The notes: generated from the letters alone by a model not told the origin. Shown: positions 40,516 to 63,854, counted from the stretch's first letter. The stretch: 64,000 bases of DNA from Clostridiales bacterium (GCA_021736985.1 JAIPEW010000001.1:159649-223648), one strand, 5' to 3'. Translations and numbers: made by a program.

Positions 40516-41955
40516 GTGTCTTTAGAAATGCAGTTAAATACAGTACTAAATTCAATAAAACAAATAGCTCCCGGCAGGTGTTATCTCGTAGGAGGAAGTG
40601 TACGTGATCTGCTTCTGGAGCGTATTTCCAGTGATATTGACATGGTAGTGACCGGCAGTGCCGGGGATACCGTGTACCGGCTTGCCGAATTAACCGGTAT
40701 TAAACCCGTGGTTTTGTCTGCAGAGCATGACATAATGCGTGCTGTTATCAGCGGCAGCTGCCACCTGGATATTACAGGCCTGGGGGAAAGAAACCTGGAA
40801 GATGACTTAAAAAGGCGCGACTTTACTATCAACGCAATGGCCCTGCCTCTGGAATCCTACCTGCAGAAAAATTACCGGGATATTATTGATCCCCTCGGCG
40901 GGTTAAATGACTTGCAGCAGGGGAGAATAAAGGCCTGCTCATCGCAGGTTTTTGAGGAAGACCCACTCAGGACGCTGAGAGCAATGCGCCTGAAATGTCA
41001 GCTGGGTTTTAGCATTGAAAACGGTACATTCAAACTGATGCAGAATACGCGCAGGCCCCTTTCTGACGTGCCCGGGGAGCGCACCTGGGAGGAATTGTGT
41101 CATATATTTTATACCCCTGGTTCGTACGCGGCATTTGATTTGTTGAGCCGGGAAACCGGGATTTTAGGGCAGCTTTTTCCCGAGGTAGATTCAATGCGGG
41201 AAACTGAGCAAAACTATTACCATGCCGACAATGTATGGGTGCACTGCCTGAAAACCCTGTATTATTTTGAGCAAATACTCCAGGGTGATTACTTACCTGC
41301 CGATTTAAATGAAAAAATCCCCGGCTATTTATACCAGCTTATTACTAATATAAGAACGCGCCTCCCCGTGATAAAGCTGGCCTGTCTTTTTCACGATGTA
41401 GGCAAGCTGTATACCTGGAAAAGGCGCAGTGACGGGCGTATAACTTTTTACGGGCACCACACAGCGGGGGGCCCGGTTGCGCAAGAAATAGGGGAGAAGC
41501 TTAAAATGAGCAGGCAGGAACAGAACTTGCTGCGCCTTTTAGTAGAGCAGCACATGCAGCCGCTTTTTCTTTATAAAGAAACCCCCTCGGACAAGGCAGT
41601 GATTAAGTTTTTCCGCAAACTCTGTGAAGAAGTACCGGGCTGTTTAACTCTCAGCCTGGCAGACGTGTGCAGCAGCAGGGGAAGTACAGGCAGAGAAGAC
41701 CTTGCCCGGCAATATTCCAAGTATATCTCGGGATTGCTGGCACGATATTTTGAAGAAAAAGAAGACATAATAAATCCCCGCCTGCTTTTAAGCGGAGACG
41801 AAATATGCAGCATGTTTAACTTAAACCCGTCACCATTTATAGGCAGGATAAAAAATACCCTGCAGGAGGCACAGGCCGAAGGCCGCGTTAAAAACAGGCA
41901 GGAAGCAGTAGATGTAGTGAAAGAACTGGTAGGTAAGGTAGATTGGGAGAAGTAA
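40516..41955 (+). CDS. cca: CCA-adding tRNA nucleotidyltransferase / poly(A) polymerase family protein with HD domain
   Basis: GGSVRDLLL, RRDFTINAMA, EDPLRTLRAMRL, then LFHDVGK (HD). The start could be ATG 40528. Confidence 0.8.
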   Translation: MSLEMQLNTVLNSIKQIAPGRCYLVGGSVRDLLLERISSDIDMVVTGSAGDTVYRLAELTGIKPVVLSAEHDIMRAVISGSCHLDITGLGERNLEDDLKRRDFTINAMALPLESYLQKNYRDIIDPLGGLNDLQQGRIKACSSQVFEEDPLRTLRAMRLKCQLGFSIENGTFKLMQNTRRPLSDVPGERTWEELCHIFYTPGSYAAFDLLSRETGILGQLFPEVDSMRETEQNYYHADNVWVHCLKTLYYFEQILQGDYLPADLNEKIPGYLYQLITNIRTRLPVIKLACLFHDVGKLYTWKRRSDGRITFYGHHTAGGPVAQEIGEKLKMSRQEQNLLRLLVEQHMQPLFLYKETPSDKAVIKFFRKLCEEVPGCLTLSLADVCSSRGSTGREDLARQYSKYISGLLARYFEEKEDIINPRLLLSGDEICSMFNLNPSPFIGRIKNTLQEAQAEGRVKNRQEAVDVVKELVGKVDWEK

Positions 41956-48466: not shown

Positions 48467-48522
48467 GCACTCAATACTATTAAGTTTCTTAATGATTTCA
48501 TAAAATCCTAAACTCAGAAAAA

Positions 48523-48627
48523 AGATAATTTTCTCAGAGGAATTGAAATATACACCCGAGAACATAGTTGCGCCCGGTATGGCCTGAGATTTCTCAGAAA
48601 AAAAGATAATTCACTCATTAAAACCTG
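48523..48627 (+). repeat. two 24-25 nt direct repeats 80 bp apart in the AT-rich spacer upstream of the cas cassette
   Basis: ctcagaaaaaagataattttctca (48523-48546) and ctcagaaaaaaagataattcactca (48603-48627). Confidence 0.6.
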
Positions 48628-48666
48628 TCCATAGCTTTAAGTCGATAAAAATTTTTCATTATTTAT

Positions 48667-48696
48667 AAAGACAGTCATATATAAATGGCTGTCTTT
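48667..48696. terminator. orphan strong hairpin (terminator-like)
   Basis: aaagacagtcat(48667-48678) pairs with atggctgtcttt(48685-48696) with one G-U pair and a 6-nt loop. No gene ends nearby. Confidence 0.35.
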
Positions 48697-48908
48697 TATA
48701 ATTTGTATGTTTTATAGATTTTTTTATATGAAGTAAAAAGAGCGTTTTTTTTGGATCTTATATAGCAAATTTTATGAACTTTTTAAAATTAAAAATATGA
48801 GAAGAGTTGTATAATTTGTCGACTGATTAATAAAATAACTTCAAAGGAAAAAGTAACCAAATGTTGAAAAAAAACAATTAATTATATTTTTCAGAAAAGA
48901 GGGGTTTT

Positions 48909-50273
48909 TTGTTTAAATATAGCTTTACAGACTTAGTTTTATTGGTTGGGACAAACCCATTACCTAACTATGTTGTAACAAAATATTTTCTACAAAGCAA
49001 TGTAGATATCCAATGCATTTGGTTGGTTTACTCTGAGCATACAAACTATCAACAAGGAACTGAAGAGTTAGCTAATTGTATAAAAGACACTGTTATTGAA
49101 GATATAAATAAGGCGAGAGATATAAAAATGAATCTTGTAAGTTTAAGTGATGTTAGTTCGGCAATAAAAATAAAAAATGATATTGAGAAAAAAATGTTAA
49201 GTAAATTATTATCTAATGGGTCAGGGCATAGTGTTCATTTAAATTATACTGGTGGGACAAAAGCTATGGCGGTTCATATCTACAGAGAAGTAGAGAAAAA
49301 AATAGAGAGTAAAAGCTCTTTTTCCTATTTAGATGCCAGAGATTTTACGCTTAAAGATGATAATGAAGGCACTATTACTAATGATTTGAGAGAAACATTA
49401 GATATTTCTCTTGAAACTTTAATGAATCTACATGGATATGAAAGAAAAGATAAAAACTCTAAGCAAGATACTTTTGATAATCAAAAAGTAATTAATGAGT
49501 TTAAAAAAATTATTAATAATGAAGAGTTAGATTCATATTTGAAATGGCAAAATAATTTTTTGCGTAAGAATTATTTTGATGAAAAGGGGTTTATAGAAAA
49601 TAAGAGCAGGTTTTTGAAACATAACAAGCTGGAGGAAGAAGATAAATCAGGATGGGATAGATTAAGGCAGGAATTTAACGATGTAACACCCCCATCAGTT
49701 ATGAATTTATTAAAGTCATTACCATCAGATAAATCCATAATTGATGAAAATAATGAATTATGGATACCGGATAAATCTATTAATAAGAAGTTATTTAAAA
49801 ATAGATTAAAGCCCTCTGTAAATGGTTGTTTAGCAGGAAAATGGTTGGAGTCTTATGTGGAAAATATTATAAAAGAAAATATTGAAGTGGATGAACAGTT
49901 AAAATTAAAAGATATTCCTATTGAGTCAAACTGGGAAATTAAAAGCAAAAAAGGCAACAAGGAATTTGAACTGGATGTTATTGTGATAAACGGATATCAA
50001 ATTTGCGGGATATCATGTACAACAGGTAAAGATAAGGGTTTATGCAAGGAGAAAGGATTTGAAATTCTTTTCCGTGTTAACCAGATAGGAGGAGATGAAG
50101 CAAGGGCTATTCTGGTTACTCCATTATCTGATGACAGAGTTGAAGATTTAACAGAAGATTTAAAAATGGTTTCCGGAACAACGGAGGATAAACTGCTTGT
50201 TATTGGCCAAGCAGACCTAAAAGAGGAGATACTATGGAAAAAAATCAAAGAACATATTTGGAGTAGGAGGTAA
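48909..50273 (+). CDS. can2: CARF-domain plus PD-(D/E)xK nuclease effector, Can2/Card1-like (DUF1887-type)
   Basis: N-terminus DLVLLVGTNPLPNYVV (CARF Rossmann start). C-terminus GKWLESYVEN...FELDVIVINGYQICGISCTTGKDKGLCKEKGFE (D...ExK nuclease core). TTG start after SD aaagagggg. Sits directly upstream of cas10. Confidence 0.65.
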   Translation: MFKYSFTDLVLLVGTNPLPNYVVTKYFLQSNVDIQCIWLVYSEHTNYQQGTEELANCIKDTVIEDINKARDIKMNLVSLSDVSSAIKIKNDIEKKMLSKLLSNGSGHSVHLNYTGGTKAMAVHIYREVEKKIESKSSFSYLDARDFTLKDDNEGTITNDLRETLDISLETLMNLHGYERKDKNSKQDTFDNQKVINEFKKIINNEELDSYLKWQNNFLRKNYFDEKGFIENKSRFLKHNKLEEEDKSGWDRLRQEFNDVTPPSVMNLLKSLPSDKSIIDENNELWIPDKSINKKLFKNRLKPSVNGCLAGKWLESYVENIIKENIEVDEQLKLKDIPIESNWEIKSKKGNKEFELDVIVINGYQICGISCTTGKDKGLCKEKGFEILFRVNQIGGDEARAILVTPLSDDRVEDLTEDLKMVSGTTEDKLLVIGQADLKEEILWKKIKEHIWSRR

Positions 50274-50276
50274 GCT

Positions 50277-51839
50277 ATGAATACTGTGACCGCTGTTCTG
50301 CTTGATACTGTATCCATTCAAAAGTATGTATTTGCTAGTAATTTACTTAAAGAAAATCTGGGTGCTTCATACCTTGTTGATAATATTTACAATGGTGACT
50401 TAAAGGAGTCTTTAAAAGAGGTACTTGGTTTTGATCCAGATGTTGATAGTTGGCAAAAAGATCCACAAAAAATAAATATAGCTGAAGATTCAAGTGTTGA
50501 ATACGAGACAGGATACATTGGAGGAGGTAATGCATTACTTCTTTTCCGAGAATTGGAGACAGCTAAGGTCTTTGTAAATAATTGGACTAGAAGATTATTG
50601 GTTACAGCTCCTGGTCTTCAAATTGCTGCGGCAATTGGGAATTTAGATCTGGATAATAATTCTTTCAGTGAAAGCTTAGTACAACTATTTAAACAGTTGA
50701 CAAAAAATAAAAATAAGTTTTTTCCTAATACAAGTTTACCCAAGCATGGAATAACAGCAGACTGTCCACATTCAGGTTTTTCGACAGAATTTTATTACGA
50801 AGATTTCGAATATGAGAAAGTTTATGTTTCTTCTGTGTCCTGGTCAAAATTATGTGCTGCTCAGAAGTCTGAAGAAAAAATAATAAAAGAGTATAAAGAG
50901 GTACTGGGTAATAACTACACCTTTACAAATAAAATTGATCTATTGGGACAAGTAGAAGGTAAAAGTTATATATCTATAGTGCATATAGACGGTAATGAAA
51001 TGGGTAAAAGATTTTCTAAATGCCAAACCCTACCGGAACGAAGGAATCTTTCTATAGCGGTGGATAAAGCGACAAAGAGTGCCTTTGGAAAATTATTGCA
51101 ATATATAAGAGATAATATAGGTTTACTCCAAGAAGAAGGTTTTAATATTAATAAAAATCTTGGAAAAACTAAAACTATATTTCCTATTCGTCCTATAGTT
51201 TTAGGCGGGGATGATGTGACCTTTGTAACAGACGGACGTCTTGGAGTTCATTTGGCTGAAAAATTTGTTCGTTTTATTGAAAAGGAAAAAATCGGTGAAA
51301 ATGAAAACCTTTATACCTCGGCTGGTGTAGTTATAACCAAGTCCAAACACCCCTTTTTCCGGGGATATGAAATGGCAGAAGGTTTATGTGATTCGGCAAA
51401 AGAGGGAGCTAGAAAGCAGAAAAATTCATCATGGTTAGATTTTCACATTGTTTATGGGGGTTTTTCTGGAAACTTAGGTGAAATAAGGGAAAAAAATATT
51501 GCACAGGGAGGTAAGCTTTATTTTGGGCCATATATAATTTCTAATTTGCAAGAGACAAAAAGTATAACTAATTTAAAAAATGGTATAAAAGAATTTGGTG
51601 ATAAGGAAAAATGGCCTCGGTCTAAAGTTAAGGAATTGCGCTCAGTATTACCGCTGGGCAAGAGTGAGGTAGAGAAATTTATTAGGGAATTAAGAGGTGT
51701 AAGACTTCGACTTCCCTATATCACTGGTGAAAAGGATTATTCAATAAATGGATGGGAAGATAAAGAAACACCTTATTTTGATATGATTGAATTATTAGAA
51801 TTCTATCCAATTAGTTTATTAAGCGAACAAGGGGTGTAG
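50277..51839 (+). CDS. cas10: compact Cas10-like cyclase subunit lacking an HD domain (type III-D-like)
   Basis: Starts directly with the Cas10 palm-1 pattern LLDTVSIQKYVFASNLLKENLGASYLV. The second palm reads ISIVHIDGNEMGKRF ... PIVLGGDDVTFVTDG (GGDD). Only 520 aa. Confidence 0.7.
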   Translation: MNTVTAVLLDTVSIQKYVFASNLLKENLGASYLVDNIYNGDLKESLKEVLGFDPDVDSWQKDPQKINIAEDSSVEYETGYIGGGNALLLFRELETAKVFVNNWTRRLLVTAPGLQIAAAIGNLDLDNNSFSESLVQLFKQLTKNKNKFFPNTSLPKHGITADCPHSGFSTEFYYEDFEYEKVYVSSVSWSKLCAAQKSEEKIIKEYKEVLGNNYTFTNKIDLLGQVEGKSYISIVHIDGNEMGKRFSKCQTLPERRNLSIAVDKATKSAFGKLLQYIRDNIGLLQEEGFNINKNLGKTKTIFPIRPIVLGGDDVTFVTDGRLGVHLAEKFVRFIEKEKIGENENLYTSAGVVITKSKHPFFRGYEMAEGLCDSAKEGARKQKNSSWLDFHIVYGGFSGNLGEIREKNIAQGGKLYFGPYIISNLQETKSITNLKNGIKEFGDKEKWPRSKVKELRSVLPLGKSEVEKFIRELRGVRLRLPYITGEKDYSINGWEDKETPYFDMIELLEFYPISLLSEQGV

Positions 51840-51842
51840 GCA

Positions 51843-52490
51843 GTGCAAAAAGTCCAAATTAATATAGAGTTGAAATCGCCCTTATTGCTGGGTTCTGGAG
51901 AAGGTTGGGGTTCACTAATTGATACAGATATAGTTTTTGACCGCTATGGATTACCTTATTTCCCAGCCAGAAGGCTAAAAGGATTAATGAGGGAGAGCGC
52001 AATAGAAATTATTGAAATTCTTCGCCATCATGTTGAAGGTTTTACACAAACAAGTATAAACCAAATTTTTGGAACCGGGACCAATCCAGGCCAGATAAAA
52101 TTCCATAATGCATTTCTGAAAGAGTATGATAATACTATAGAATGGTTAAAGTGGGCCTTTGAAGAATATTCAAATATCTTATCTGCAGAAACTGTACTGG
52201 ATACTATGACTGAAGTTCGTATGCAGACAGCAGTAAAAAATGATGGTACAGCTGAAAATGCAAGTCTTCGTAGTCAACGCGTTTTAACCCCTGAGCATAA
52301 ATTTATCGCTCAGGTCCATATAATTGAGGAAAATCAACATGCTTTTAAGCTGTTAGCATTAGCATGTGCTAACCTACGTCATATTGGTAGTAAACGCAAT
52401 AGAGGTTATGGGGAAGTTGAGTGCTCATTATGGGAAAATAATAAAAATATAACTAATAGTACAATTGAGCAGATAAAGGAAGGTGTTTAA
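51843..52490 (+). CDS. cas7: Cas7-family RAMP (Csm3/Cmr4-like)
   Basis: LLLGSGEGWGSLIDTDIVFDRYGLPYFPARRLKGLMRES and the Gly-rich loop GSKRNRGYGEVE. GTG start. Confidence 0.7.
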   Translation: MQKVQINIELKSPLLLGSGEGWGSLIDTDIVFDRYGLPYFPARRLKGLMRESAIEIIEILRHHVEGFTQTSINQIFGTGTNPGQIKFHNAFLKEYDNTIEWLKWAFEEYSNILSAETVLDTMTEVRMQTAVKNDGTAENASLRSQRVLTPEHKFIAQVHIIEENQHAFKLLALACANLRHIGSKRNRGYGEVECSLWENNKNITNSTIEQIKEGV

Positions 52491-54048
52491 GGTGTATGCT
52501 CTTGAATATCGGCTTAAAACCCTATCACCTGTTTTAATAAGCAGTTTTGGGGATGCAAATATGACAAAAACTATGGATTTCATACCGGGGAATGTTTTAT
52601 TGGGTGCTTTTGCATCTAATTATATAAATAAAAATAAAATTATTTCTGATGCACATAAGGATGAACAATTTTATAAATGGTTTCTTTTAGGAGATATTAT
52701 ATTTTCTAATGCTTATCTATTAGTGAATGATGAAAAAAAAGAAATAAAATTGTGCCCGTCACCTATGTCAGTTCAGACTGATAAAGCTGAAAAAAATATT
52801 TATAATTTAATTGTTATGGATGATGATCTAGATGAACCTACAAAAGAAGTTGGGTATTATTCATATTTCAGCGGTAATAAGATTATTAAACAAATACCCG
52901 AGAAGCAAATTAGTTTTCATCACTGGAGGAAAGAAAGGCTAAAAGGAAACAGCAGTGAAGGAGGTATTTTTAATTACGAATCTTTGACAGAGGGACAAAC
53001 TTTTTGGGGTAATATTTATGGTGAAAAAACTGATTTAGAACAAATAAAAGAAAAATTTGGGGACAAAATTACTATCCAGATTGGACGTTCAAAAAACACT
53101 CAGTACGGACAGGCAGAAGTCAATTTATTAGATATTGAAAAATTCAATCCAAGTATATATTTTGAAAACGATAATTTAGAGGACAATGAAATATTGTTAA
53201 CACTTACTTCACCTGTAATTTTAATGAATAAATTTGGTTATCCCGAGGTTTCATTAGAAATTTTACGTGAGTACCTGGAGGATGTATTAAATTATAACAA
53301 GTTTAATATTGAACAGTCCTATGCCAAGGTTGAATCTATAGAAGGCCATGTTTCAGTATGGAAATTAAAAAAAACATTAGAGAAAGCTTTTTGTAAAGGT
53401 GCTACTTTTAAAATTATTTTTGAAGATAGTATTAACGAAAATCTTAAGGAAAAGTTACAACAACTCATGATTAACGGTATAGGAGAGAGAAAGAATGAGG
53501 GTTTTGGAAGGGTAGCGATTAATTGGGCTGTCAATGAACAATACATAAACAAGGAATTAAAAATGCAAAAAACACCAAAACCTTCTAAAAAGCCTTCAAA
53601 TATAGTAAGCAATGTATTTGTTTCTATTATAAAAAATAATATCAGTAAATTTATAACAAATGAGGCAGTAAGTGAGGTTAGCAATTATTCTTGTCAGTCA
53701 CTACCTAATAGTTTTTTAGGTAGACTTGAACTAATGCTTAAAAATGCCAATGATGCTGATGAATTTGTAAAAAGTGTACACAAGTTGAGAGATACTGCAA
53801 AAGATAAATTAAAAACTTGTAGAAATAAGCGCCAGACATTATTGCAAACCATAATAAATAATAATACTCCTAACTGGGAGCAAGTGCTAAGAAAAAATGA
53901 AAATATAAATGATCTAGAAAAAATGGCTAAAGAAATAGATTACAATTTTAAAGAAGATAAAGATTTTACAGAAGAAATCTATAAGAAATATTGGCTGACC
54001 TTTTTTAGAACAATTAGAAAATTAAATAAAGAAAAGGGAGGGGTATAA
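52483..54048 (+). CDS. csx10: Cas5-like RAMP (Csx10-like) with a C-terminal helical extension (possible Cas11 fusion)
   Basis: LKTLSPVLISS...MDFIPGNVLLGAFAS, GRSKNTQYGQAEV and GIGERKNEGFGRVAINW. The last 170 aa or so are Lys/Asn-rich and look helical. The start is GTG 52483 or, more likely, GTG 52492. Confidence 0.55.
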   Translation: MFKVYALEYRLKTLSPVLISSFGDANMTKTMDFIPGNVLLGAFASNYINKNKIISDAHKDEQFYKWFLLGDIIFSNAYLLVNDEKKEIKLCPSPMSVQTDKAEKNIYNLIVMDDDLDEPTKEVGYYSYFSGNKIIKQIPEKQISFHHWRKERLKGNSSEGGIFNYESLTEGQTFWGNIYGEKTDLEQIKEKFGDKITIQIGRSKNTQYGQAEVNLLDIEKFNPSIYFENDNLEDNEILLTLTSPVILMNKFGYPEVSLEILREYLEDVLNYNKFNIEQSYAKVESIEGHVSVWKLKKTLEKAFCKGATFKIIFEDSINENLKEKLQQLMINGIGERKNEGFGRVAINWAVNEQYINKELKMQKTPKPSKKPSNIVSNVFVSIIKNNISKFITNEAVSEVSNYSCQSLPNSFLGRLELMLKNANDADEFVKSVHKLRDTAKDKLKTCRNKRQTLLQTIINNNTPNWEQVLRKNENINDLEKMAKEIDYNFKEDKDFTEEIYKKYWLTFFRTIRKLNKEKGGV

Positions 54049-54049
54049 A

Positions 54050-55429
54050 ATGGACAAGGCCTCTATAACAGGTAAGCTTCTACTACTGGGTCAGCTAGTA
54101 TTAAAATCTCCTTTAATTGTTGGCAGTGGTTTCGGGGATGAGGAAATTGATATTACAGTTCTCAAAGACAGCATAGGTATGCCTTATGTCCCTGCTACAT
54201 CATTAGCCGGTGTTTTACGTCATTATTTTTTTAATGTTGTTGACATAAAAGATGTAAGTGAGAAACAGCTAAATTATTTTTGGGGATCAGATAAATGGAG
54301 AAAGAATGATAATAAATATCAAAGTGCATTTTTTTTGAGTGAATTAACTACAAGTGAACAACCCACCATAAGCGTCAGAGATGGTATTAAGATTGGTAGC
54401 AATGGAATTGCAGTTGATAAAGGAAAATTTGACTATGAAATAGTAGAACCGGGGGCAAAATTTAATTTTAAAATAGAGGTTAATCTCAGGCAAGACTATG
54501 ATAAAGAGCTTTTTAAGAGAATTTTGGCCTTTTTAGTTAGTGCAATGGAAAATAGAGAAATTATGCTTGGTGCAATGACTACCAAAGGTTTTGGTAGATG
54601 TGAGTTAGATTATAAAAAATATTATGAGCTTGATTTTACTAAAAAGAAAGATGTTATTGCATGGCTTAAGAATAGCACCAATGAATTACAAGAGGGTTTA
54701 TTAGATGTTGAAAATGTTTTTACAGCTAAAAATAATGATTTTTATATAGATGTAATGCTTGAAATTAAGTCATCTTTAATAATTCGTTCCTATTCAGGTG
54801 ACCCACAGGCTCCGGATGCTGTGCATATCCATAGTAATAATAAACCAGTACTTACGGGGACATCGATTAAAGGAGCTATAAGAAATAGAGCAGAGTATAT
54901 AATTAATACACTTGGTGGAAATAGCAATAAAATGGTAAAAGAACTTATGGGGTGGGCTGATGACAGGGGAAAAAGTAAGGAAAAATATAAGAGTAGAGTT
55001 ATAGTGGAAGAAACAAAAATTGATAATGCTGTTCCCAAGATACAAAACAGAATAAAAATTGACCGTTTTACTGGAGGAACTATCAAAACGGCACTTTTTA
55101 ATACAACTCCTCTTTGGCCAGTAGAGTCTGGAAAAAATATGGTACAGATTAGGCTGACTGTTAAGCAGTATAAAGATTGGGAGGTGGGTCTACTGCTGCT
55201 GCTTCTGAAAGATTTATGGTCCGGAGACCTGCCTGTTGGCGGCGAAAAAAATATAGGCCGAGGCCTATTTAAGGGAGTTAAGGCAGATATATCCTATGAA
55301 GATAAAGTAGTAAAAATATCTCAGCAAAAAGATGGTTTAAAAATAGATGAAGGTAATGTTGATGAGTTAGAGAGTTTTATCAATGCATTTAATGATATGT
55401 GTCGGGGGAAGGAGGCCTCCCATGACTAA
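54050..55429 (+). CDS. cas7: double Cas7 RAMP fusion (Cas7-2x)
   Basis: Two RAMP cores. The first has SPLIVGSG...GMPYVPATSLAGVLRH...TTKGFGRCEL. The second has SSLIIRSYSG...PVLTGTSIKGAIRNRAEY...IDRFTGGT...GGEKNIGRGLFKG. Confidence 0.7.
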   Translation: MDKASITGKLLLLGQLVLKSPLIVGSGFGDEEIDITVLKDSIGMPYVPATSLAGVLRHYFFNVVDIKDVSEKQLNYFWGSDKWRKNDNKYQSAFFLSELTTSEQPTISVRDGIKIGSNGIAVDKGKFDYEIVEPGAKFNFKIEVNLRQDYDKELFKRILAFLVSAMENREIMLGAMTTKGFGRCELDYKKYYELDFTKKKDVIAWLKNSTNELQEGLLDVENVFTAKNNDFYIDVMLEIKSSLIIRSYSGDPQAPDAVHIHSNNKPVLTGTSIKGAIRNRAEYIINTLGGNSNKMVKELMGWADDRGKSKEKYKSRVIVEETKIDNAVPKIQNRIKIDRFTGGTIKTALFNTTPLWPVESGKNMVQIRLTVKQYKDWEVGLLLLLLKDLWSGDLPVGGEKNIGRGLFKGVKADISYEDKVVKISQQKDGLKIDEGNVDELESFINAFNDMCRGKEASHD

Positions 55430-55994
55430 TAGTGATGTAGTAGGGCTTGAATGGGAAAAAATAAAAACAGAAGCAATGTTTGAGAAGGGACAGGTAATTC
55501 GAAATATCATAGATTTGCAGGAAAAAATAAGTGAGATGTTTCAAAGTAATGGAGAGGTCGTTGCTTATATAGACTATAAGGTTTTAATAGGTACATTCGA
55601 GAAGGGCAAATTGTTTTTCTATGCAAATGAACAATTTGAGCCAAAATATTTGCAAAAATTACGAGTGTTTAATAAAGATAAAGAAATCTATTTATGGCGA
55701 ACAAAAGAATGTCAGTTTAACATTCGTGCCCGTTTGGACGGCCAAGGTTATGAAAAGGATATAGTAGATGCTGATCAAGTTATCTGGGGTACAAAAGAAG
55801 ATAGATTAGAAAACGGATGGAGTAAAATATATGAGGAGCGGGGAATGGAATTAATAGTGCCCTTTTTAAATAAAAACTTTAATGAAAAAAGCAGGGCAAA
55901 GATAAAAACGCGTAATTATATCGATTATAATGACCTTGGTCAAGCTGGTTATGTTGATTGCAGGTTTTTGGAATTTGTACCGGGAGGGGAGTAA
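55422..55994 (+). CDS. csx19: Csx19-like small type III-D accessory subunit
   Basis: 190-aa non-RAMP protein between Cas7-2x and the large Cas7, the position Csx19 takes in III-D loci. ATG 55422 follows SD ggaagg and overlaps the upstream stop. This is a positional assignment only. Confidence 0.45.
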   Translation: MTNSDVVGLEWEKIKTEAMFEKGQVIRNIIDLQEKISEMFQSNGEVVAYIDYKVLIGTFEKGKLFFYANEQFEPKYLQKLRVFNKDKEIYLWRTKECQFNIRARLDGQGYEKDIVDADQVIWGTKEDRLENGWSKIYEERGMELIVPFLNKNFNEKSRAKIKTRNYIDYNDLGQAGYVDCRFLEFVPGGE

Positions 55995-55995
55995 C

Positions 55996-58062
55996 TTGGA
56001 AGATGGTAAAATTTGTGTTAGTAGGACTAAAAAAGGTAAGCTGGATGGTAAGATACATCTAGAAAATGGTAAAATTATGCCTGTTCCACCTCATTATAAA
56101 ATTGAAGAATCATTAAACGATAAAGATTGTCAGATAGAAAGGCAAAAAGGCCAAATAGTTAATATCATTATAGATGGAAAAGAGTTAAAAACAAAAGAAA
56201 ACCAGGTATCTACCCAATCGAGTTCTGTTGAAAAAAAAGAGCATGCAAAACAAAAAAAGTGTTCACCCTCAAAAGAGAAAAAATTTACCAAGAAATCTGC
56301 AAAAGCACCTTATAACTTTATTCCCTTGAACAATCATATAGTAGAATCATCTTTTAAACCTGAAGAGGTTTTTACTAAAATTTATCATAAAGAAAAGTTA
56401 ACAGGTAAAAAACGGTTAACGGGTAAAATAAATTTGGAGTTAGAAACCAAAACTCCTCTTTATATAAGGGATACAAGTAATTGGGAAAAAGAAGAAGATA
56501 ATATTAACCCTGAATTTTTTTCACCAGGAGGAAGATACAAAATTCCTGGTAGTAGTTTAAGGGGCATGACTAGAACATTGGTTGAAATAATTAGCTGGGG
56601 TAAATTTTCTTTTTTTGACAACAAATTGCTGTATTATCGTGAAGTGGCAGTTAAAAGTAGCTTAAATCAAGAATATCAAAGAAATATGATTTCTCGTGAT
56701 GGAAAAAAATTTAATGCAGGTTATCTTATAAAAGAAGGTGTAGATAATTATTACATTATTCCGGCCCAAAAAGAAAATGGGATACAATTTAAACAGATTA
56801 ATAAAAAAGAAATCAAAGCTAGTTTGTCTAATCAGCAATTTACTTATCATAAACGAGAAGATGGTAAGTATTTGGTATTTTCGGGGAATATGCCATACAA
56901 GGAACATCATTGGCTTATAAATCCACCGGATTTTGAAGCTCATTCTATACCCATAGAAAAAGATGATATAGAAAAATACAGTAAAGATGAAAACCGCTAT
57001 AGTGATAACAGTAATAAAAATGATAAAGATAAGCAGGATGGAGATCTGCTCCGGCAGTTAAGAGTAAGTGAGGAAGGGATAGTACCTTGCTTTTACGTTC
57101 ATTGGAAGGATAGCCAAAAAAGAGACAGAATATCATTCGGACATACAGGTTACTTTCGTTTAGCTTATAAAAAGACAATAGGAGATCATATACCAGACAA
57201 GCTTAAAAATGAGGATAAAATTGATTTAGCTGAAGCGATATTTGGAAAGGAATCTTATTTCGCATCCCGTGTTTCCTTTGAGGATGCCGAATTAGTTTCC
57301 GGGCAAAATAATATTCTTATGGAAAAAGTTTCACCGAAAATATTATCAACCCCCAAACCTACAACTTTCCAACACTATTTAGAGCAAGATACAGATGACA
57401 TAAAACAATTGAAGCACTGGAATGATGAGGTTAACATAAGGGGATACAAGCTTTACTGGCACAAAAATATAAATAATAATCCTAACTATTGGCAGGAAGA
57501 TGCTATTAAAGATGATACACAACATACTGTTATTAAACCAATAAAACCTGGGATGAGATTTAAGGGAAATATTAGATTTGAAAATCTTTCGGAAATAGAA
57601 TTAGGGGCCCTTCTTTTTGCGCTGGACCTGCCTGATAACCATTATCATAAGATTGGTATGGGAAAACCTCTTGGACTAGGTTCTGTAAAAATTAATACAA
57701 ACTTAATTATATCTGATAGAGAGAAAAGGTACGAAAAATTATTTTCCGGTAATGATTGGGAATTAGGTGAAAAAGAACAACCAATTAATAAGTATAAAGA
57801 TAAATTTGAAAAATTTATCTTGGCAAAATTAAAAGAATTTGAAGAAGACAAAAAGAATTATGAAGTAGGATCACTTTGGGAAACTGAAAGATTAAAACAA
57901 TTAAGAATTATTTTGGATTGGAGCAACACTTTACAAACAGAATGGCTTAGTAAAACAGATTACATGGAACTCGATCAATTTAAAAATAGACCGGTATTGC
58001 CAAAACCAGAGGTGTGTTTGGCAAGTAAAAAATACATAATTTCGCAGCGAATTTATACATAA
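55996..58062 (+). CDS. cas7: large Cas7-family RAMP with insertion (TIGR03986-like, Cas7-insertion)
   Basis: APYNFIPLN, YKIPGSSLRGMTRTLVEII, then a long insertion, then LGALLFALDLP...IGMGKPLGLGSVKI. Likely TTG start at 55996 after SD ggagggga (the ORF is open from 55930). Confidence 0.65.
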   Translation: MEDGKICVSRTKKGKLDGKIHLENGKIMPVPPHYKIEESLNDKDCQIERQKGQIVNIIIDGKELKTKENQVSTQSSSVEKKEHAKQKKCSPSKEKKFTKKSAKAPYNFIPLNNHIVESSFKPEEVFTKIYHKEKLTGKKRLTGKINLELETKTPLYIRDTSNWEKEEDNINPEFFSPGGRYKIPGSSLRGMTRTLVEIISWGKFSFFDNKLLYYREVAVKSSLNQEYQRNMISRDGKKFNAGYLIKEGVDNYYIIPAQKENGIQFKQINKKEIKASLSNQQFTYHKREDGKYLVFSGNMPYKEHHWLINPPDFEAHSIPIEKDDIEKYSKDENRYSDNSNKNDKDKQDGDLLRQLRVSEEGIVPCFYVHWKDSQKRDRISFGHTGYFRLAYKKTIGDHIPDKLKNEDKIDLAEAIFGKESYFASRVSFEDAELVSGQNNILMEKVSPKILSTPKPTTFQHYLEQDTDDIKQLKHWNDEVNIRGYKLYWHKNINNNPNYWQEDAIKDDTQHTVIKPIKPGMRFKGNIRFENLSEIELGALLFALDLPDNHYHKIGMGKPLGLGSVKINTNLIISDREKRYEKLFSGNDWELGEKEQPINKYKDKFEKFILAKLKEFEEDKKNYEVGSLWETERLKQLRIILDWSNTLQTEWLSKTDYMELDQFKNRPVLPKPEVCLASKKYIISQRIYT

Positions 58063-58068
58063 TTCCCA

Positions 58069-58080
58069 TTGCCAGTCATC
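58069..58080. repeat. IS21-family terminal inverted repeat (istB-proximal end)
   Basis: ttgccagtcatc is the reverse complement of 63919-63930. Confidence 0.6.
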
Positions 58081-58086: not shown

Positions 58087-58564
58087 CTAGTTTGAAACTT
58101 CAGAAAAATACCTACTATTTTCTTCCTGCTCTTGTTTTTGGTTGCTGTCTTTTTCTTTTTTAGATAGCGCATTCGTCAAGCGGTAGCTGTATCCTGTAAA
58201 AGATAAAATATGTGCATGATGGACAAGGCGATCAATAATAGCTGCAGTTAATCGTTTATCTCCAAACACTGTATTCCATTGACCAAATTCTAAGTTTGTC
58301 GTAACTATAATACTTGTAGTTTCATAGCTTTCTGAAATTACATCGAATAATAATTCAGCTCCGTCTTTATGGAAAGGAATAAACCCCAATTCATCAAGGA
58401 TAAGTAATTCTACTTTTCTCAAGTCTTTCATAAATCGATGTAAGGTACCGCTTTGATGTTTATCCAGAAGTGTTGAGACTAGATCAGATGCCCGAAAGAA
58501 TCGGACATACTTTCCTTGCTGGCAAGCTTCTAAACCGGTTGCTATCGCTAGATGAGTCTTTCCG
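58087..58564 (-). pseudogene. istB: istB helper ATPase, C-terminal part (split by the RIT insertion)
   Basis: Minus-strand reading from 58564: (G)KTHLAIATGLEACQQGKYVRFFRASDLV...VELLILDELGF...TTNLEFGQW...RLVHHAHIL. It starts mid Walker A. Confidence 0.8.
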
Positions 58565-58584: not shown

Positions 58585-58618
58585 CGGAAATTATCGAAAG
58601 TTTTTACTTATGGAAAGA
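58585..58618. repeat. RIT terminal inverted repeat (ritC-proximal)
   Basis: cggaaattatcgaaagtttttacttatggaaaga is a perfect reverse complement of 62008-62041. Confidence 0.85.
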
Positions 58619-58683
58619 TAATCAGAAAAACACGCAAGTGTTGCACTTCGTTCCTGAAAATCTTTCCATAATGTTTCTTGAAT

Positions 58684-59706
58684 TTACTTGCAAAAATCCT
58701 GCAGCCAGTTCAACAAATCCGTGTCTTCATCCCAAGTAGGAATATCCTGTGTTACAACTTCCATATATGCAGATTCCAATGCCTTTCTTTTTACTTCTGA
58801 ATTTACCCTCGAATAAATCTCAGTTGTGGTAACGTTTACATGTCCCAAAAAATCCCTTATATAAATTATTGCTACACCAGCCTCCAGCAGATGTATTGCT
58901 TTCGTGTGCCGTAGCATATGAGGGTGTAAACTGTCAGGGAACAGAACTTCTGTATGGGCTTCCCTGGCCTTTTTCAAGTATTTTTGCAAGATGTATGTAA
59001 TGCCAGGTCTAGTTAATGGATGTCTTTTACTATTATAAAACAGCGGATGACTTTGATTGCCGTTTTCCAGCAAGCGATTCTCTATCATATAGTTCTCCAA
59101 CAGATATTTTGTTTTTTCCATAATGGGAATACATCTTTTTTTGTTTCCTTTTCCAGTTATAGTAACAGTTGCAGGTTTTATTAGGCGGATATCTCCCGCT
59201 TTTAAATCAATTAATTCCTGTACTCTTGCTCCAGTGTCATAAAGGGTGGCCATTATTGTTAAATCACGACGTCCCCTTTTTTTAGATGTATCGGGTTGTT
59301 CCAATAAATACTTCACGCTTTCCTGAGACAGATAATCAACCGTTTTCTTTTCCCTCTTTTTAAAGGGAATACCTATGATTCTTTGGCATTCTAACAGGAA
59401 TTCCGGGTTTTCTGACTGAGTATAACGGTAGAAACTGTGAATTGCTGCTAGCCTCTGATTACGAGTATTAATGCCAATATTGCGTTTTTTCTCCAGCCAA
59501 CTCAGAAAATCTTTAATGGTTTCTACTGTGATTTTATCAAAAGTAAGGTGCTCCGGATTAATGTTCCGTTCTGAGGCACAAAATTGCAGTAACTGCTTGA
59601 ATGTATCCCGGTAAGATTTAATTGTATTGGTACTAACATTGCGCTGGCCCGGAAGGTGCTCCGATAAAAATCGTGTCAGCGTTCTGGCAAAATCAGTTTG
59701 CTTCAT
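58684..59706 (-). CDS. ritC: tyrosine recombinase, third gene of trio
   Basis: GARVQEL (R), HMLRHTKAIHLL (HxxR) and GHVNVTTTEIYSRV (catalytic Y). It overlaps ritB by 14 nt. Confidence 0.8.
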   Translation of the reverse strand: MKQTDFARTLTRFLSEHLPGQRNVSTNTIKSYRDTFKQLLQFCASERNINPEHLTFDKITVETIKDFLSWLEKKRNIGINTRNQRLAAIHSFYRYTQSENPEFLLECQRIIGIPFKKREKKTVDYLSQESVKYLLEQPDTSKKRGRRDLTIMATLYDTGARVQELIDLKAGDIRLIKPATVTITGKGNKKRCIPIMEKTKYLLENYMIENRLLENGNQSHPLFYNSKRHPLTRPGITYILQKYLKKAREAHTEVLFPDSLHPHMLRHTKAIHLLEAGVAIIYIRDFLGHVNVTTTEIYSRVNSEVKRKALESAYMEVVTQDIPTWDEDTDLLNWLQDFCK

Positions 59707-60676
59707 GGAACGTTACCTCCGGTATTAAAGATGAAAAATTCCGTTCCACAGAAGCAATGATTTCTGGATATAAGTCGGCAGTTAGTCTTAAGTAATGCTG
59801 TGTGCCTCTTAAATCAACGTGCCCCAGATATGCAGAAAGATAGGGAAGGAGGTTAGTAAGGTCTTCTCCATTTAAAACCCATTTCTTTAAACAGTGCACA
59901 GAAAACGAATGTCGCAGATCATGGAGCCTTGGACCTTTTCCGCTATGGGAAATTCCAGCTTCCCAAAGGATCCGCCTAAACAGCTTGTATATCGTGGTTT
60001 CACTATAATGCCCTCCATACGGAGACGGGAAGAAAAATGTCTGACATGATGCACTAGAATGAATTTTGCTTGCAAACAGGCGGCAGCGTTCTGTTAGGCT
60101 TTTTGCCATTGGAACAATACGTTCTTTATTGAATTTTGTATCCCGTATAAATAGAGTTCCTCGCTTTAAGTCAACATCGTTAAGTGTTAAGTTTAGCGCT
60201 TCTGAAATTCTTAAACCACACCCGTACAGCAAACGGAAAATGAGTGGTAGTATTAGATGACGGTTGGGAGATACATTGGAAACGGGATAATTATCGCATA
60301 TGCTAAAAATACGTCTCATTTCTTCTTCAGAAAAGATGTAGGGAACATAGGAGTATCTTTCAATAGTAACAGCAGCATCCGGAAAGACATATGCCTCATA
60401 ACCGAGGCGTACCATGTATTTAGCAAATCCACGCACTATTGAAATTCTTGCATTCCTAGTACTATCTTTTTGATTTGGCTTCTTCTCGGTCCAAAGTAAT
60501 ACCAATGCCTTCGGAAGTTTCTTTTCCATCAAATGCTCTTTAACAGCTAAGGTGTCAAATTGCTTCAAAAGAGAGAAACCTTTTATATATTTATAGCCCA
60601 CAGCCCTTTTTTCTTCTATATATCCGGTAATAAGTTCACCGAGAATGCTTTCAAAAACAATAATCTTCTTAGACAC
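59693..60676 (-). CDS. ritB: tyrosine recombinase, second gene of trio
   Basis: GLRISEAL, HDLRHSFSVH and GHVDLRGTQHYLRL. I chose the GTG start at 60676, which overlaps the ritA stop (GTGTCTAA). The ORF is open from 60772. Confidence 0.75.
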   Translation of the reverse strand: MSKKIIVFESILGELITGYIEEKRAVGYKYIKGFSLLKQFDTLAVKEHLMEKKLPKALVLLWTEKKPNQKDSTRNARISIVRGFAKYMVRLGYEAYVFPDAAVTIERYSYVPYIFSEEEMRRIFSICDNYPVSNVSPNRHLILPLIFRLLYGCGLRISEALNLTLNDVDLKRGTLFIRDTKFNKERIVPMAKSLTERCRLFASKIHSSASCQTFFFPSPYGGHYSETTIYKLFRRILWEAGISHSGKGPRLHDLRHSFSVHCLKKWVLNGEDLTNLLPYLSAYLGHVDLRGTQHYLRLTADLYPEIIASVERNFSSLIPEVTFHEAN

Positions 60677-61910
60677 CCTTAAACACCTCTTCCGGGTCAA
60701 TGGCACATAAGCGCAATCCTTCAATTCCTGTATGCAGGTAGACGCCTGCAGACTTAGAATTGACATGTCCAAGTATTTCGGAGATTAGTGGCAAGGGTGT
60801 GCCCTGTTCGAGCAAATTACTTGCAAGTGTATGCCGGAGTGAGTGTAATCCGTGCCTTTTGCCCTTCGGAACAGTGATTCCGGAAAGCCTGGTATATTTG
60901 GTAATAATGTTATATAGATTAGCATCTCTCCCAAAGGCTTCATAAGGAGCATTCATCCGTATAAAAACAAAGGGTGAACTACTGACTGGACGTGCATTCT
61001 TTAAATAATCAATCAGTGCCCAGCCAATATCATTTAAAATGGGGTAAGTGACAGTGTTCTTGGTCTTATCCTGTCTTACTTCTATGATTTTTGATTGCCA
61101 ATTTAAATTCGATAACTTTAAAGATTTAATGTCTCCAACCCGTAATCCAAGCTTAACAACCAGAAGTAAAATGGCATAATCTCTTTTCCCAGTTGGATTT
61201 CCCCTATCAATACTTTCCAATAAACGTACGACATCTTCTTTATTCCAAACAGAAGGTACAGAAGGATAGTAATACTTGCTCTGTTTTGGGACTTTTAAGG
61301 ATAAGTCTTCATCTGTACATTGGTTTAAATAAAGAAACCTTAAAAAAACCCTGAGTGTTGTTAAAATTGAAGAAATGCTTTTTTCATGGTGCGGATATAT
61401 TGTTTTAACATAATCAGATATTATCTCCGGGGAAATATCATTTACATGCTGAATATTTCTGGCATCCAGATAGTCTATGAAAAAAAATAATCGCTGCATC
61501 CGTGTACGCAGCCCTCTTTTTGAATAATCGCTGTTATTACATTCTTCTTCATAAGCTGTTAGTTCTTTTTCAAACTGAGGGGGTTTTACATATCCGGGCT
61601 TTTTTACAATCCTTCGGATTATTACACCATGCAGCTGATAATCACCTAAAACTCTTATCATCCTGATGGGGGACTTAAATGTTTTGGGCATGGTTTCCGT
61701 ATAATAATTGATTGTACAGTTATATTTTTCTTTTAAAAATGCTCTCCCTAATTCCTCTGAATAATACAGTACTCCTTTTTCATTGGCAAACGCAATTATT
61801 CTTTTGTAAAATGCCCGAAACCCACATATTGAGTTGTAGGAATATTTCAGCCTTTCAAGTTCCTTCAATACTTCAGCGACAAGTTCATTGATGGTTCTTT
61901 TTTCTTCCAT
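60669..61910 (-). CDS. ritA: tyrosine recombinase, first gene of trio
   Basis: GLRVGDIKSL, HSLRHTLASNLL and GHVNSKSAGVYLHT. SD ggaggtg before the ATG. Confidence 0.8.
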   Translation of the reverse strand: MEEKRTINELVAEVLKELERLKYSYNSICGFRAFYKRIIAFANEKGVLYYSEELGRAFLKEKYNCTINYYTETMPKTFKSPIRMIRVLGDYQLHGVIIRRIVKKPGYVKPPQFEKELTAYEEECNNSDYSKRGLRTRMQRLFFFIDYLDARNIQHVNDISPEIISDYVKTIYPHHEKSISSILTTLRVFLRFLYLNQCTDEDLSLKVPKQSKYYYPSVPSVWNKEDVVRLLESIDRGNPTGKRDYAILLLVVKLGLRVGDIKSLKLSNLNWQSKIIEVRQDKTKNTVTYPILNDIGWALIDYLKNARPVSSSPFVFIRMNAPYEAFGRDANLYNIITKYTRLSGITVPKGKRHGLHSLRHTLASNLLEQGTPLPLISEILGHVNSKSAGVYLHTGIEGLRLCAIDPEEVFKGV

Positions 61911-62007
61911 ATGGCACCTCCAAGATTATTTTATATAATCTATTGTGAGGTGTTATGGAAAGAAATAATAGTATATATTTGTGCTACTGATGACATATAC
62001 CATTATT

Positions 62008-62041
62008 TCTTTCCATAAGTAAAAACTTTCGATAATTTCCG
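62008..62041. repeat. RIT terminal inverted repeat (ritA-proximal)
   Basis: tctttccataagtaaaaactttcgataatttccg is a perfect reverse complement of 58585-58618. Confidence 0.85.
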
Positions 62042-62358
62042 GTTCCCACAGCCCCTAACATCATCACATTTTCGTATTTTTCCATAAACACAAGGTCTTT
62101 TAACATATCTATGTTCAGCGTTTCCGGGAAACTAATGCAACCATTTTGCTCATAATCCTCAAATATTTTATGTTGGCTAAATCCAGCTTTCTTAATTAAT
62201 CTCTGGATTTTAGCTGACTGTCTTGCATGAAGTTCTGCCTGTAATATTTGTAATAGGAATTCTTCATTGGATTCAGCATTGATTTGTGGATATATTTTAG
62301 CCATATGTCCGAGTTTCAACTTTTTGCAGTATTCTTGTATGAGTGAAGCTGTATTCAT
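62036..62358 (-). pseudogene. istB: istB helper ATPase, N-terminal part (split by the RIT insertion)
   Basis: MNTASLIQEYCKKLKLGHMAKIY...NVMMLGAVGTG, then the frame runs into RIT end sequence. It overlaps the istA stop by 4 nt, as is typical for IS21. Confidence 0.8.
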
Positions 62359-63854
62359 GAAGCAACACCACGCTTTGAAAGCTGGTCATATGCACTTAAA
62401 TCTGGATCATAATTTTTTACTTCTTCGGGTGTATAATTTTCAGGTAAAGTATTTGTACTTACCTGAGGGTTAGCTAATTGGTATAACGCATGGCAGATAA
62501 TCCCCTCCTGGTCTTGTTGATAAATCGAAGTATTTTCAATAGCCTGGTTTATATTTTCCATAGAGTATCCTGTTTCAAACCATTTAATTAACCAACTGAT
62601 ACGCTTTTTCCGTTTAGAAAGATCAGATATATTTATATAGGTTTGAAGAGCTTTAGATAACTGTGAATAAACCCATGAATAAGGCACAGCCTTTGGTTTT
62701 ATCCGTATTAGCTCTAATTCTGCCATCCAATCGATCTCACGTTCTTTAAATGTGTACGGTCGGGGAAAAGAACCAATCTGTTCATGCTGCTCGTTTAATA
62801 CCTGGACTTGATCCCAGTAAACTTTGAGTAATACATTTTCATGCCTGCTCCCCCTGGGAATTGAGAAATGCTGTCCATCCCATTTGACTTTTCCGTATTT
62901 ATCTAAAATCGCATTAGATAATCGGTATACATCAAAAGGTTCCCGAGGCAATAACTTCATTTTCTTTTTTTCTTCTTCAAACAATATGCCAATAGGCTGC
63001 TGCTTTTCATAGTGTTTTTGTTGCAGATATTTTTCTGCTTTTTCTTTCATTTGTTTGTTGATAGATTCCCAAGAAGTTAGTTGAGGGAGTGGAACCATCC
63101 AGTTCCTCCGCGTACAGCCAACTTTATTTTCAACATTACCTTTTTCATGCCCTTCACCTACGTTACAAAATTCATGTTGAAAGCCGTAATGTAAAGCAAA
63201 CTGCCGGAAGAGTTCTGTAGTTTTTCGATCACGCCCCTGCACCTTTGCGACAGCTGCAGATAAATTGTCAAACCAAATTTTCCGGGGTACGGCATCTACA
63301 CATTTAAATAGTTCTTGTAATCCCGTTAGAAAACATTCTATGTTTTCACCTGGTAAAAACCAAAGGTAAGAGGCGTTGCTGTAAGGAAAAGACATCACAA
63401 GATACTTAACTTGAATTAATTTCTGTAGATGGGTAACTTCAGCAGTACCAAAATCGACTTGTGCTTCTCCCCCCGGATGCTGTAAGTCAAGGTATGTGTT
63501 TGTTGGCTTGGTTAGTTCCTTTTTTTTGTTAGCCACATAGGTTGTAACCGTACGTTGTCCACCGGTAAAGCCACATTCTTTCACCAATCGCTCATAAATG
63601 TGAATATTTGTATGCCTTTGCTTTTTCGGCCTTCTTTGATCTTCAAGTAACCAAGTATCGATAATGTCCAGATACGGTCCTAACACTGGATAAGTTTTCT
63701 TTCGGTGTCTAACTTCTATATTCCAGTTTTCTCGATCTGCGTATTTTTTAGCTGTTCTCCAATTTACATTCATTTTTTTAGCAATTGTATTAATTGACAG
63801 ACCTTCTTCATTTCTTAAAAATTTGATATACTCTAGTTGAGCCATTGCTAGCAT
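62355..63854 (-). CDS. istA: IS21-family transposase IstA
   Basis: N-terminal HTH (YIKFLRNEEGLSINTIAKKMNVNWRTAKKY), a DDE-type core (QVDFG...FDNLSAAV...HEKGNVEN), 499 aa, followed by istB. Confidence 0.85.
   Translation of the reverse strand: MLAMAQLEYIKFLRNEEGLSINTIAKKMNVNWRTAKKYADRENWNIEVRHRKKTYPVLGPYLDIIDTWLLEDQRRPKKQRHTNIHIYERLVKECGFTGGQRTVTTYVANKKKELTKPTNTYLDLQHPGGEAQVDFGTAEVTHLQKLIQVKYLVMSFPYSNASYLWFLPGENIECFLTGLQELFKCVDAVPRKIWFDNLSAAVAKVQGRDRKTTELFRQFALHYGFQHEFCNVGEGHEKGNVENKVGCTRRNWMVPLPQLTSWESINKQMKEKAEKYLQQKHYEKQQPIGILFEEEKKKMKLLPREPFDVYRLSNAILDKYGKVKWDGQHFSIPRGSRHENVLLKVYWDQVQVLNEQHEQIGSFPRPYTFKEREIDWMAELELIRIKPKAVPYSWVYSQLSKALQTYINISDLSKRKKRISWLIKWFETGYSMENINQAIENTSIYQQDQEGIICHALYQLANPQVSTNTLPENYTPEEVKNYDPDLSAYDQLSKRGVAS

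Follow-up and report, generated by a model that had tools for sequence, protein, structure and literature searches.

A Can2-led type III-D CRISPR operon without a neighbouring array on a contig of a Clostridiales bacterium

Introduction

Type III-D systems are the closest described relatives of the CRISPR system that is analyzed here, a Can2-led effector cassette in a 64,000-nt stretch of DNA from a Clostridiales bacterium. The III-Dv complex of Synechocystis sp. PCC 6803 (8S9T/U/V/X; PMC11026444) is encoded by the genes for Cas10, a Cas7-Cas5-Cas11 fusion, Cas7-2x, Csx19 and Cas7-insertion, in this order, and D26, D33 and D246 have been experimentally shown to be its cleavage sites (PMC11026444). 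Its operon is adjacent to cas6-2a, adaptation genes, and a 56-spacer array, and Csm6 and Csx1, not Can2, are encoded upstream. In Thermoanaerobacter brockii (8Q3Y-8Q44; PMC10783487) the gene for the nuclease Can2 is localized directly upstream of cas10, and the order of the effector genes is the same. TbrCan2 degrades single-stranded DNA (ssDNA) and RNA after activation by cyclic tetra-adenylate (cA4), and it is the type member of clade 1 of the Can2 proteins, the type III-D clade (PMC10783487). An HD domain is found in only 3% of the III-D Cas10 proteins, and the subtype is thought to operate mainly by cyclic oligoadenylate (cOA) signaling (PMC11229360).

The 64,000-nt stretch, called the window throughout, comprises positions 2795-66794 of contig JAIPEY010000015.1 (GCA_021736925.1, 67160 nt), of which 366 nt remain beyond the window. 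The cassette occupies positions 48909-58062 on the + strand. It is probably an intact-looking type III-D interference and signaling operon, which was acquired horizontally and would obtain its CRISPR RNA (crRNA) from an array that is not on this contig.

Results

The seven genes of the operon

The cassette consists of seven co-directional open reading frames (ORFs), with gaps of 3, 3, 1, 1, -8, and 1 nt between them. The genes therefore form a tight operon, and the ORF calls agree with the seven packed genes that a preliminary description, made by reading the sequence by eye, had placed at 48909-58062. The gene identities were established with the profile libraries Pfam, NCBIfam/TIGR, and PADLOC, and by sequence comparison with PDB chains. 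The profile searches recovered all seven by-eye assignments, with E-values for the cassette that span 1e-36 to 1e-175. The genes are:

48909-50273, + strand: can2, 454 aa, a clade-1 Can2/Card1 protein with CARF domain, helical insertion, and PD-(D/E)xK nuclease domain
50277-51839, + strand: cas10, 520 aa, HD-less, with GGDD at residues 310-313
51843-52490, + strand: cas7, 215 aa, a stand-alone gene
52492-54048, + strand: csx10, a cas5-cas11 fusion, 518 aa, with an alternative GTG start at 52483
54050-55429, + strand: cas7-2x, 459 aa, a double Cas7
55422-55994, + strand: csx19, 190 aa, an assembly subunit of type III-D complexes
55996-58062, + strand: cas7-insertion (TIGR03986), 688 aa

All seven proteins match those of relatives in size, no frameshift is present, and the catalytic motifs are intact apart from one variant residue in Can2. 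Can2 matches the PADLOC profile CARF_PDDEXK (PDLC01885) with 2e-134 and the Pfam families CARF_Card1 and Card1_endonuc. Its residues 9-437 align with residues 6-424 of T. brockii Can2 (PDB 8Q44; 4e-65), and the full-length alignment covers the CARF domain, the helical insertion, and the PD-(D/E)xK domain (clade-1 size about 440 aa). The motifs ELD and SCTTG are found where the clade-1 series E-ExD-SxTTS-K has ExD and SxTTS. By analogy to TbrCan2, the protein is predicted to be a cA4-activated ssDNase and RNase.

Cas10 is best matched by the PADLOC profile Cas10d (2e-125), and it also matches Pfam Cas10-Cmr2_palm2 (3e-10; 40.7 bits versus a cutoff of 27 bits). Among PDB chains, solely the III-Dv Cas10 (8S9T_C; 4e-22) is matched, and residues 7-465 align with residues 21-505 of this chain. 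The GGDD motif is present at the corresponding position in 48 of 61 relatives. An HD nuclease domain could be ruled out, the protein opens with Palm1, and this fits the mainly cOA-dependent mode of action of the subtype (PMC11229360).

The remaining five proteins are subunits of the effector complex. Cas7 matches Pfam RAMPs (2e-14), PADLOC Cas7_IIId (4e-46), and positions 2-204 of the fused PADLOC profile Cas5_IIId (1e-52), and it covers residues 2-200 of 8S9T_A, which form the Cas7 part of the fused Cas7-Cas5-Cas11 chain in Synechocystis. Csx10 matches positions 215-708 of the same Cas5_IIId profile (1e-76) as well as TIGR02674 (5e-24; 85 bits, which is below the equivalog cutoff of 177). As a single sequence it aligns to residues 250-608 of 8S9T_A, while its family profile aligns to residues 246-765 (8e-37) and spans the Cas5 and Cas11 domains. 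The two ORFs cas7 and csx10 are in different frames, and a single Cas7-Cas5-Cas11 polypeptide is not encoded. Cas7-2x matches Pfam RAMPs in two stretches (4e-44), PADLOC Cas7_IIId (3e-127), and 8S9T_D (2e-23). Asp27 of Cas7 aligns with the catalytic D26 of Synechocystis, and Asp34 and an aspartate in the second domain of Cas7-2x align with D33 and D246. Csx19 matches TIGR03984 (4e-36; 124 bits versus a cutoff of 35) and PADLOC Csx19 (7e-42); 8S9T_B is matched by the family profile only (3.5e-6). Cas7-insertion matches TIGR03986 (5e-136; 455 bits versus a cutoff of 161), PADLOC Cas7_IIId (1e-174), and 8S9T_E. An ATG at 55930 was rejected as its start codon; the TTG at 55996 is preferred by gene callers, and homologues align from residue 1. 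Cas7-insertion has 1741 homologues, and some of them (P0066, P0082, and P0103) are proteins of 1060-1139 aa with a fused ATPase domain of the AAA/SMC type (PF13175, PF13476, PF02463, PF13304).

Comparison with described type III-D and type III-E systems

The gene order is that of a type III-D variant complex, as had been proposed from the sequence, and the effector proteins match chains A-E of the Synechocystis III-Dv structure 8S9T in the PDB. Cassette and Synechocystis operon have the subunit set and its order in common. In both, Cas10 lacks HD and contains GGDD, the three catalytic aspartates are present, and about 112 residues of Cas7-insertion form an N-terminal domain. Both also have Csx1 as an accessory protein, the cassette only formerly (see below). 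In contrast to Synechocystis, Cas7 is separate here and only Cas5 and Cas11 are fused, and the phmmer E-values of 4e-4 to 2e-23 indicate a distant relationship. The Thermoanaerobacter locus, with Can2 at the same position, encodes a fused Cas7-Cas5-Cas11 protein of 727 aa. Its Cas7-insertion is 44% identical to that of the cassette, and its Can2 has SxTTS versus SCTTG here. The Thermoanaerobacter locus (L095) contains no array within the fetched +/-10 kb.

Type III-D1, in which all subunits are separate, has the same gene order, a stand-alone Cas7, and Csx10, Csx19, and TIGR03986 proteins. Unlike in III-D1, Cas5 is fused to Cas11 in the cassette, and Cas7-2x unites two Cas7 units in one protein. 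In its fusions the cassette is therefore an intermediate of III-D1 and III-Dv. Type III-D2 (Cas7x3, Cas7-5, Cas10, CorA; PMC13294483) is part of the same series that leads in evolution to III-E; its Cas10 likewise lacks HD, and its terminal Cas7 also carries an insertion domain. Unlike III-D2, the window lacks Cas7x3, Cas7-5, CorA, and a toxin-antitoxin module, and it contains CARF effectors and Csx19. The similarity extends to Cas7-11 of type III-E, because the C-terminal Cas7 with insertion of Cas7-insertion matches Cas7.4/INS of Cas7-11 (NCBIfam gRAMP 3e-32; PDB 8D9E and others about 1e-21). However, III-E is a single fused protein without Cas10, Cas5, and Csx19, and it signals via the protease Csx29 instead of cOA.

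Relatives of the cassette

An alignment of 18 Cas7-insertion homologues was used to collect 80 loci from GTDB representative genomes. The present genome is absent from this set, and the best match in it is 49% identical; exact-match scans of JGI metagenomes gave no match to the locus. All six effector genes are present in 62 of the 80 loci, and in all 62 they are colinear on one strand. Can2 is encoded directly upstream of cas10 in 50 of these 62. According to the record titles, the sources include Bacillota, Desulfobacterales, Nitrospirota, anammox bacteria (Candidatus Kuenenia, Brocadiaceae), Ignavibacteria, Heimdallarchaeota (Asgard archaea), and Methanosarcina. Of 65 loci, 54 encode Cas7 apart from Cas5-Cas11, and 11 encode the fused protein.

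The presence of arrays was judged within the DNA fetched for each locus. At least 8 kb of downstream sequence was available for 33 loci, and 19 of these have an array, which is downstream of the cassette in 13 cases and upstream in seven; one locus with arrays on both sides is included in either number. The remaining 14 have none. In the closer relatives L011, L012, and L021 the arrays are 0.2-2.9 kb downstream, while no array was found in the fetched DNA of L091 (60% identity), of L093 and L094 (56% each), and of the Thermoanaerobacter locus L095. The Can2-led cassette is thus widespread, its architecture has already been characterized, and its members are often devoid of a neighbouring array. 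The rarity of an array-less cassette that the preliminary description had implied was overstated.

The repeats in the arrays of relatives are 30-37 nt long, and most end with ATTGAAAC or ATTGAGAC. Some of the arrays belong to the cassette, with genes for Cas6, or for a reverse transcriptase-Cas1 fusion (RT-Cas1) together with Cas2, between cas7-insertion and the array. Other relatives adjoin I-B-like (30 nt) or I-C-like (32 nt) arrays. This proximity and the shared repeat ends are consistent with a sharing of crRNAs between systems. The I-C-like repeats (GTCGCCCC...GGATTGAAAC) adjoin the cassettes L012, L013, L021, and L038. Cas4c, Cas1c, and Cas2c were detected in the flank of L012 with PADLOC, and tblastn revealed homologues of Cas1 and Cas2 in L013, of Cas4 and Cas1 in L021, and of all three in L038. 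Single-query tblastn did not find cas6 in the fetched DNA of these four loci, which hints that their III-D complexes use crRNAs matured by the nuclease of the other system.

Array and adaptation genes

Searches of four kinds (TRF, spaced direct repeats, Rfam, and a k-mer scan, which recovers arrays in relatives) did not reveal a CRISPR array in the 64-kb window, and tblastn with Cas6, RT-Cas1, Cas1, Cas2, and Cas4 of relatives gave no match in the window. This is in agreement with the absence of repeats, cas6, and cas1/cas2 that had been noted by eye. The 359 nt from the end of the target-site duplication described below to the end of the contig are free of repeat-like sequence. Degenerate repeats were also considered: 25 consensus repeats of relatives were compared with the window and the contig tail, and they were rejected, with a best identity of 0.67 versus 0.65-0.73 for shuffled sequences.

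The 3' end of the operon

Downstream, the operon borders on two nested mobile elements and a gene remnant:

58008-58012 and 64003-64007: target-site duplication AGAGG, 5 bp, compared to 4-8 bp for the IS21 family, the right copy past the window end but still on this contig
58013-64002, - strand: IS21-family insertion sequence (IS), running past the window end (Pfam IstB_IS21, rve, Mu-transpos_C_2; inverted repeats)
62355-63854, - strand: istA, DDE transposase gene
61984-62358 and 58087-58545, - strand: the two parts of the split istB, AAA+ helper gene
58585-62041, - strand: recombinase-in-trio (RIT) element, with three Phage_integrase matches and a perfect 34-nt inverted repeat
60669-61910, 59693-60772, and 58684-59706, - strand: overlapping tandem tyrosine recombinase genes of the RIT element
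64043-64198, likewise past the window end on this contig: 3' stump of csx1 (CARF-HEPN, with the HEPN motif RNxSFLAHG)

The termini of the IS21 element were determined by aligning both ends and are at 58013 (TGTGTTTGGCAAG...) and 64002 (...TTGCCATAAACA). The element starts with TG and finishes with CA, and its ends contain inverted repeats in several imperfect copies. The duplication of AGAGG at the aligned termini shows that the element is a simple, clean insertion, which did not delete an array. A deletion of the array by IS21 had been considered with a first IS end at 58070 (TGCCAGTCATC), at which there is no duplication, and it was rejected with the end alignment. The preliminary description had offered the separation of the array by mobile-element activity as one explanation; the IS21 insertion could have shifted downstream sequences by only about 6 kb.

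A distance of 6 nt between cassette and element, as had been described, is not correct, because the inverted repeat of the element starts inside the cas7-insertion ORF. The last 50 nt of the gene (58013-58062) are IS21 sequence, which supplies the stop codon and the 16 codons before it. In silico excision of the IS restores the original tail (...RPVLPKPEDVVKNFN), with the stop codon at 64028-64030. The tail of Cas7-insertion is not conserved among homologues, and therefore the IS-derived tail probably leaves the function of the protein unaffected.

The RIT element has a length of 3457 nt and resides in the region of istB that encodes the Walker A motif. Because istB is interrupted, this IS21 copy is probably non-autonomous.

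The csx1 stump comprises the last ca. 52 codons and opens 12 nt after the original cas7-insertion stop codon, in the same frame. It is 54% identical to residues 372-423 of Csx1 of relative L067 (E 6e-12), in which Csx1 precedes Can2. It follows from the position of the stump relative to the original stop that the truncation was caused by an older deletion and not by the IS. The stump is a remnant of a second cA4 effector, which had been lost before the IS inserted, and the sequence between cas7-insertion and the 3' end of csx1 was lost in that deletion. The order of events is deletion in csx1, insertion of IS21 into cas7-insertion, and insertion of the RIT element into IS21. The possibility that the stump is a conserved small gene was rejected, as the closest relative (L091) contains unrelated small ORFs at this position. 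A Logan contig from the same sample (L008), which corresponds to window coordinates 62012-64072, breaks at 64072 inside the stump. It is speculative that this break is a graph branch that stems from a second, csx1-bearing variant in the sample.

Base composition and the left border

The GC content of the cassette is 0.324, compared to 0.399 for positions 1-48466 of the window, and the GC content at third codon positions is 0.22-0.30, compared to 0.369 +/- 0.073 in 23 host genes, a few of which are equally AT-rich. The by-eye impression of a cassette more AT-rich than its flank is borne out by these values, and the foreign composition counts in favour of a III-D operon that has been acquired horizontally. 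The intergenic region 48467-48908 has a GC content of 0.256 and contains two features:

48667-48696, + strand: terminator-like hairpin with T-run, 12-pair stem (1 found versus 0.5 expected)
48700-48908, + strand: putative promoter and 5' untranslated region of the cassette, from reading the sequence

The hairpin would terminate the upstream host genes (a DUF3160 gene and a 227-aa ORF) and is the probable left border of the AT-rich island. A putative extended -10 element, TGTATAAT, was read by eye at 48809-48816, as was a ribosome binding site GAGGGG at 48899-48904, before the TTG start codon of can2. A promoter consensus scan gave no + strand match in the putative can2 promoter region, and that the cassette is transcribed from 48700-48908 is what we infer from the sequence.

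Upstream of can2, the 12-mer GAGGAATTGAAA at 48537-48548 is identical to the 3' end of the I-B-like repeats near L036, and differs by one base from those of L014. Two copies of CTCAGAAAAAAGATAATT, about 78 nt apart, are found close to it. The 12-mer was considered as the relic of a repeat and treated as a chance match, the full-length repeat similarity not being above that of shuffled sequences.

Other features of the window

Outside of the cassette and the IS element, the Pfam labels of all called genes of the window represent only housekeeping and sporulation functions (Spore_YtfJ, HutP, tRNA synthetase, two-component systems). The surroundings thus appear to be the ordinary chromosome of a spore-forming organism of the Bacillota. 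The ORF 17713-23628 (- strand, 1971 aa) has no Pfam match and, with a GC content of 0.49, is richer in GC than any other part of the window. It encodes an N-terminal hydrophobic segment and several hundred residues of 5-residue G-[FY]-D-[RK]-x repeats, which recur with a period of 15 nt and, at a higher order, of 330 nt. Two genes for nucleotidyltransferases of the PolyA_pol/CCA-adding type, 1257-3890 and 40516-41955, are present within one 40-kb stretch, and the former is fused to DHH-DHHA1 and CBS domains.

Discussion

Four observations weigh against an intact operon that is supplied with crRNA from elsewhere. First, a source of crRNA was not found, as the 67-kb contig contains no array, no cas6, and no adaptation gene. 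Second, the final Ser of the SxTTS motif of Can2 is replaced by Gly. This position is variable in relatives, which have SCTTS in 14 cases and SCTTD, SCTTA, SCGTG, or other variants in the remainder. Third, the C-terminal eight residues of Cas7-insertion have been exchanged for 16 IS-encoded residues. Fourth, the 3' end has been hit by a deletion and two nested insertions, and the operon may be decaying.

The orphan status of the cassette applies to this contig, the end of which is 366 nt downstream of the window and about 330 nt past the stump of csx1. The preliminary description had suggested looking for an array just beyond position 64000. None is present in the next 366 nt, and there the contig stops. 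The orphan appearance may be an assembly artefact of an ordinary complete locus, with the array, and perhaps cas6 and cas1-cas2 or RT-cas1, just past the contig end. This is a possibility that we regard as real but not as the leading one. It is in agreement with the predominantly downstream localization of the arrays of relatives (13 of the 33 with long flanks), which begin after as little as 0.2 kb in the closer ones. In addition, short-read contigs often end at repeats, and the NCBI contig and the Logan contigs of the sample all break in this neighbourhood. However, the contig tail after the IS duplication is free of repeat-like sequence, and 14 of the 33 long-flank relatives, among them L093, L094, and L095, have no nearby array either. 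Furthermore, the deletion in csx1 shows that DNA just downstream of cas7-insertion had already been lost. Most of the remaining probability goes to an array elsewhere in the genome, which would supply the crRNA in trans, while a genome without any usable array seems rather unlikely.

If a usable array is indeed absent, the likely explanation is a decaying remnant, which has lost the array, the processing genes, and most of csx1, confers no immunity, and is on its way to pseudogenization under the pressure of mobile elements. Overall, we consider this doubtful. The short remnant of csx1, 12 nt past the original stop of cas7-insertion, would be expected from such a decay, and so would the IS21 element in the 3' end of cas7-insertion, the RIT element nested in it, and the lack of an array on the contig. 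In contrast, the seven ORFs are full-length and without any frameshift, with motifs that are intact apart from the Gly of Can2, the clean IS insertion replaced nothing but a non-conserved tail, and array-less neighbourhoods are common for this module, including those in cultivated strains.

It is very improbable that the genes have been kept with no compatible array anywhere in the genome, so that the complex would load non-CRISPR RNAs or drive Can2 as a crRNA-independent sensor. The domesticated crRNA-independent module that the preliminary description had listed, i.e., a RAMP complex co-opted for a non-immune role, found no support beyond the fact that the contig contains no array and encodes neither Cas6 nor adaptation proteins, and it is about as improbable, because all crRNA-binding and target-cleaving subunits and the cyclase retain the residues of the crRNA-guided Synechocystis complex, the cassette adjoins arrays in at least 19 of the 33 relatives, and it is still coupled to a cOA-dependent nuclease. 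Equally improbable is a messenger other than cOA, e.g., SAM-AMP (S-adenosylmethionine linked to AMP): the close evolutionary neighbour III-D2 does make SAM-AMP and SAM-AMP2 and no cOA (PMC13294483), but CorA, Cas7x3, and Cas7-5 are all missing here, the effector genes encode CARF proteins, Can2 at present and Csx1 in the past, whose characterized relatives bind cA4 (PMC10783487, PMC11229360), and the cyclase is closest to Cas10d and to the III-Dv Cas10.

For the operon with an off-contig array, the following mode of action is proposed. By analogy to Synechocystis III-Dv, Cas10, Cas7, Cas5-Cas11, Cas7-2x, Csx19, and Cas7-insertion would assemble once each on a single crRNA. The crRNA would come from an array elsewhere in the genome or past the contig break, and would be processed by Cas6 or another nuclease that is encoded elsewhere. 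The complex would then pair with a complementary phage or plasmid transcript, which would be cut at the conserved Cas7 aspartates. Target binding would activate the GGDD cyclase of Cas10, which has no HD DNase. The product, presumably cA4, would bind to the CARF dimer of the co-transcribed clade-1 Can2, and formerly it would have activated Csx1 as well. Activated Can2 may degrade ssDNA and RNA and nick duplex DNA, and thereby stop the infection or the cell. This pathway may be operating today.

The orphan status will be of interest only if a closed genome reveals that no usable array is present. The cassette is a further well-preserved example of the Can2-led type III-D module, and no new mechanism is implied. 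The locus records the succession in which its 3' end was eroded, first by the deletion in csx1, then by IS21, and then by the RIT element. Its combination of a free Cas7, a fused Cas5-Cas11, and Cas7-2x is the commoner form among the relatives of the cassette, and it bears on the proposed step-wise path of gene fusions from III-D1 via III-Dv to III-E.

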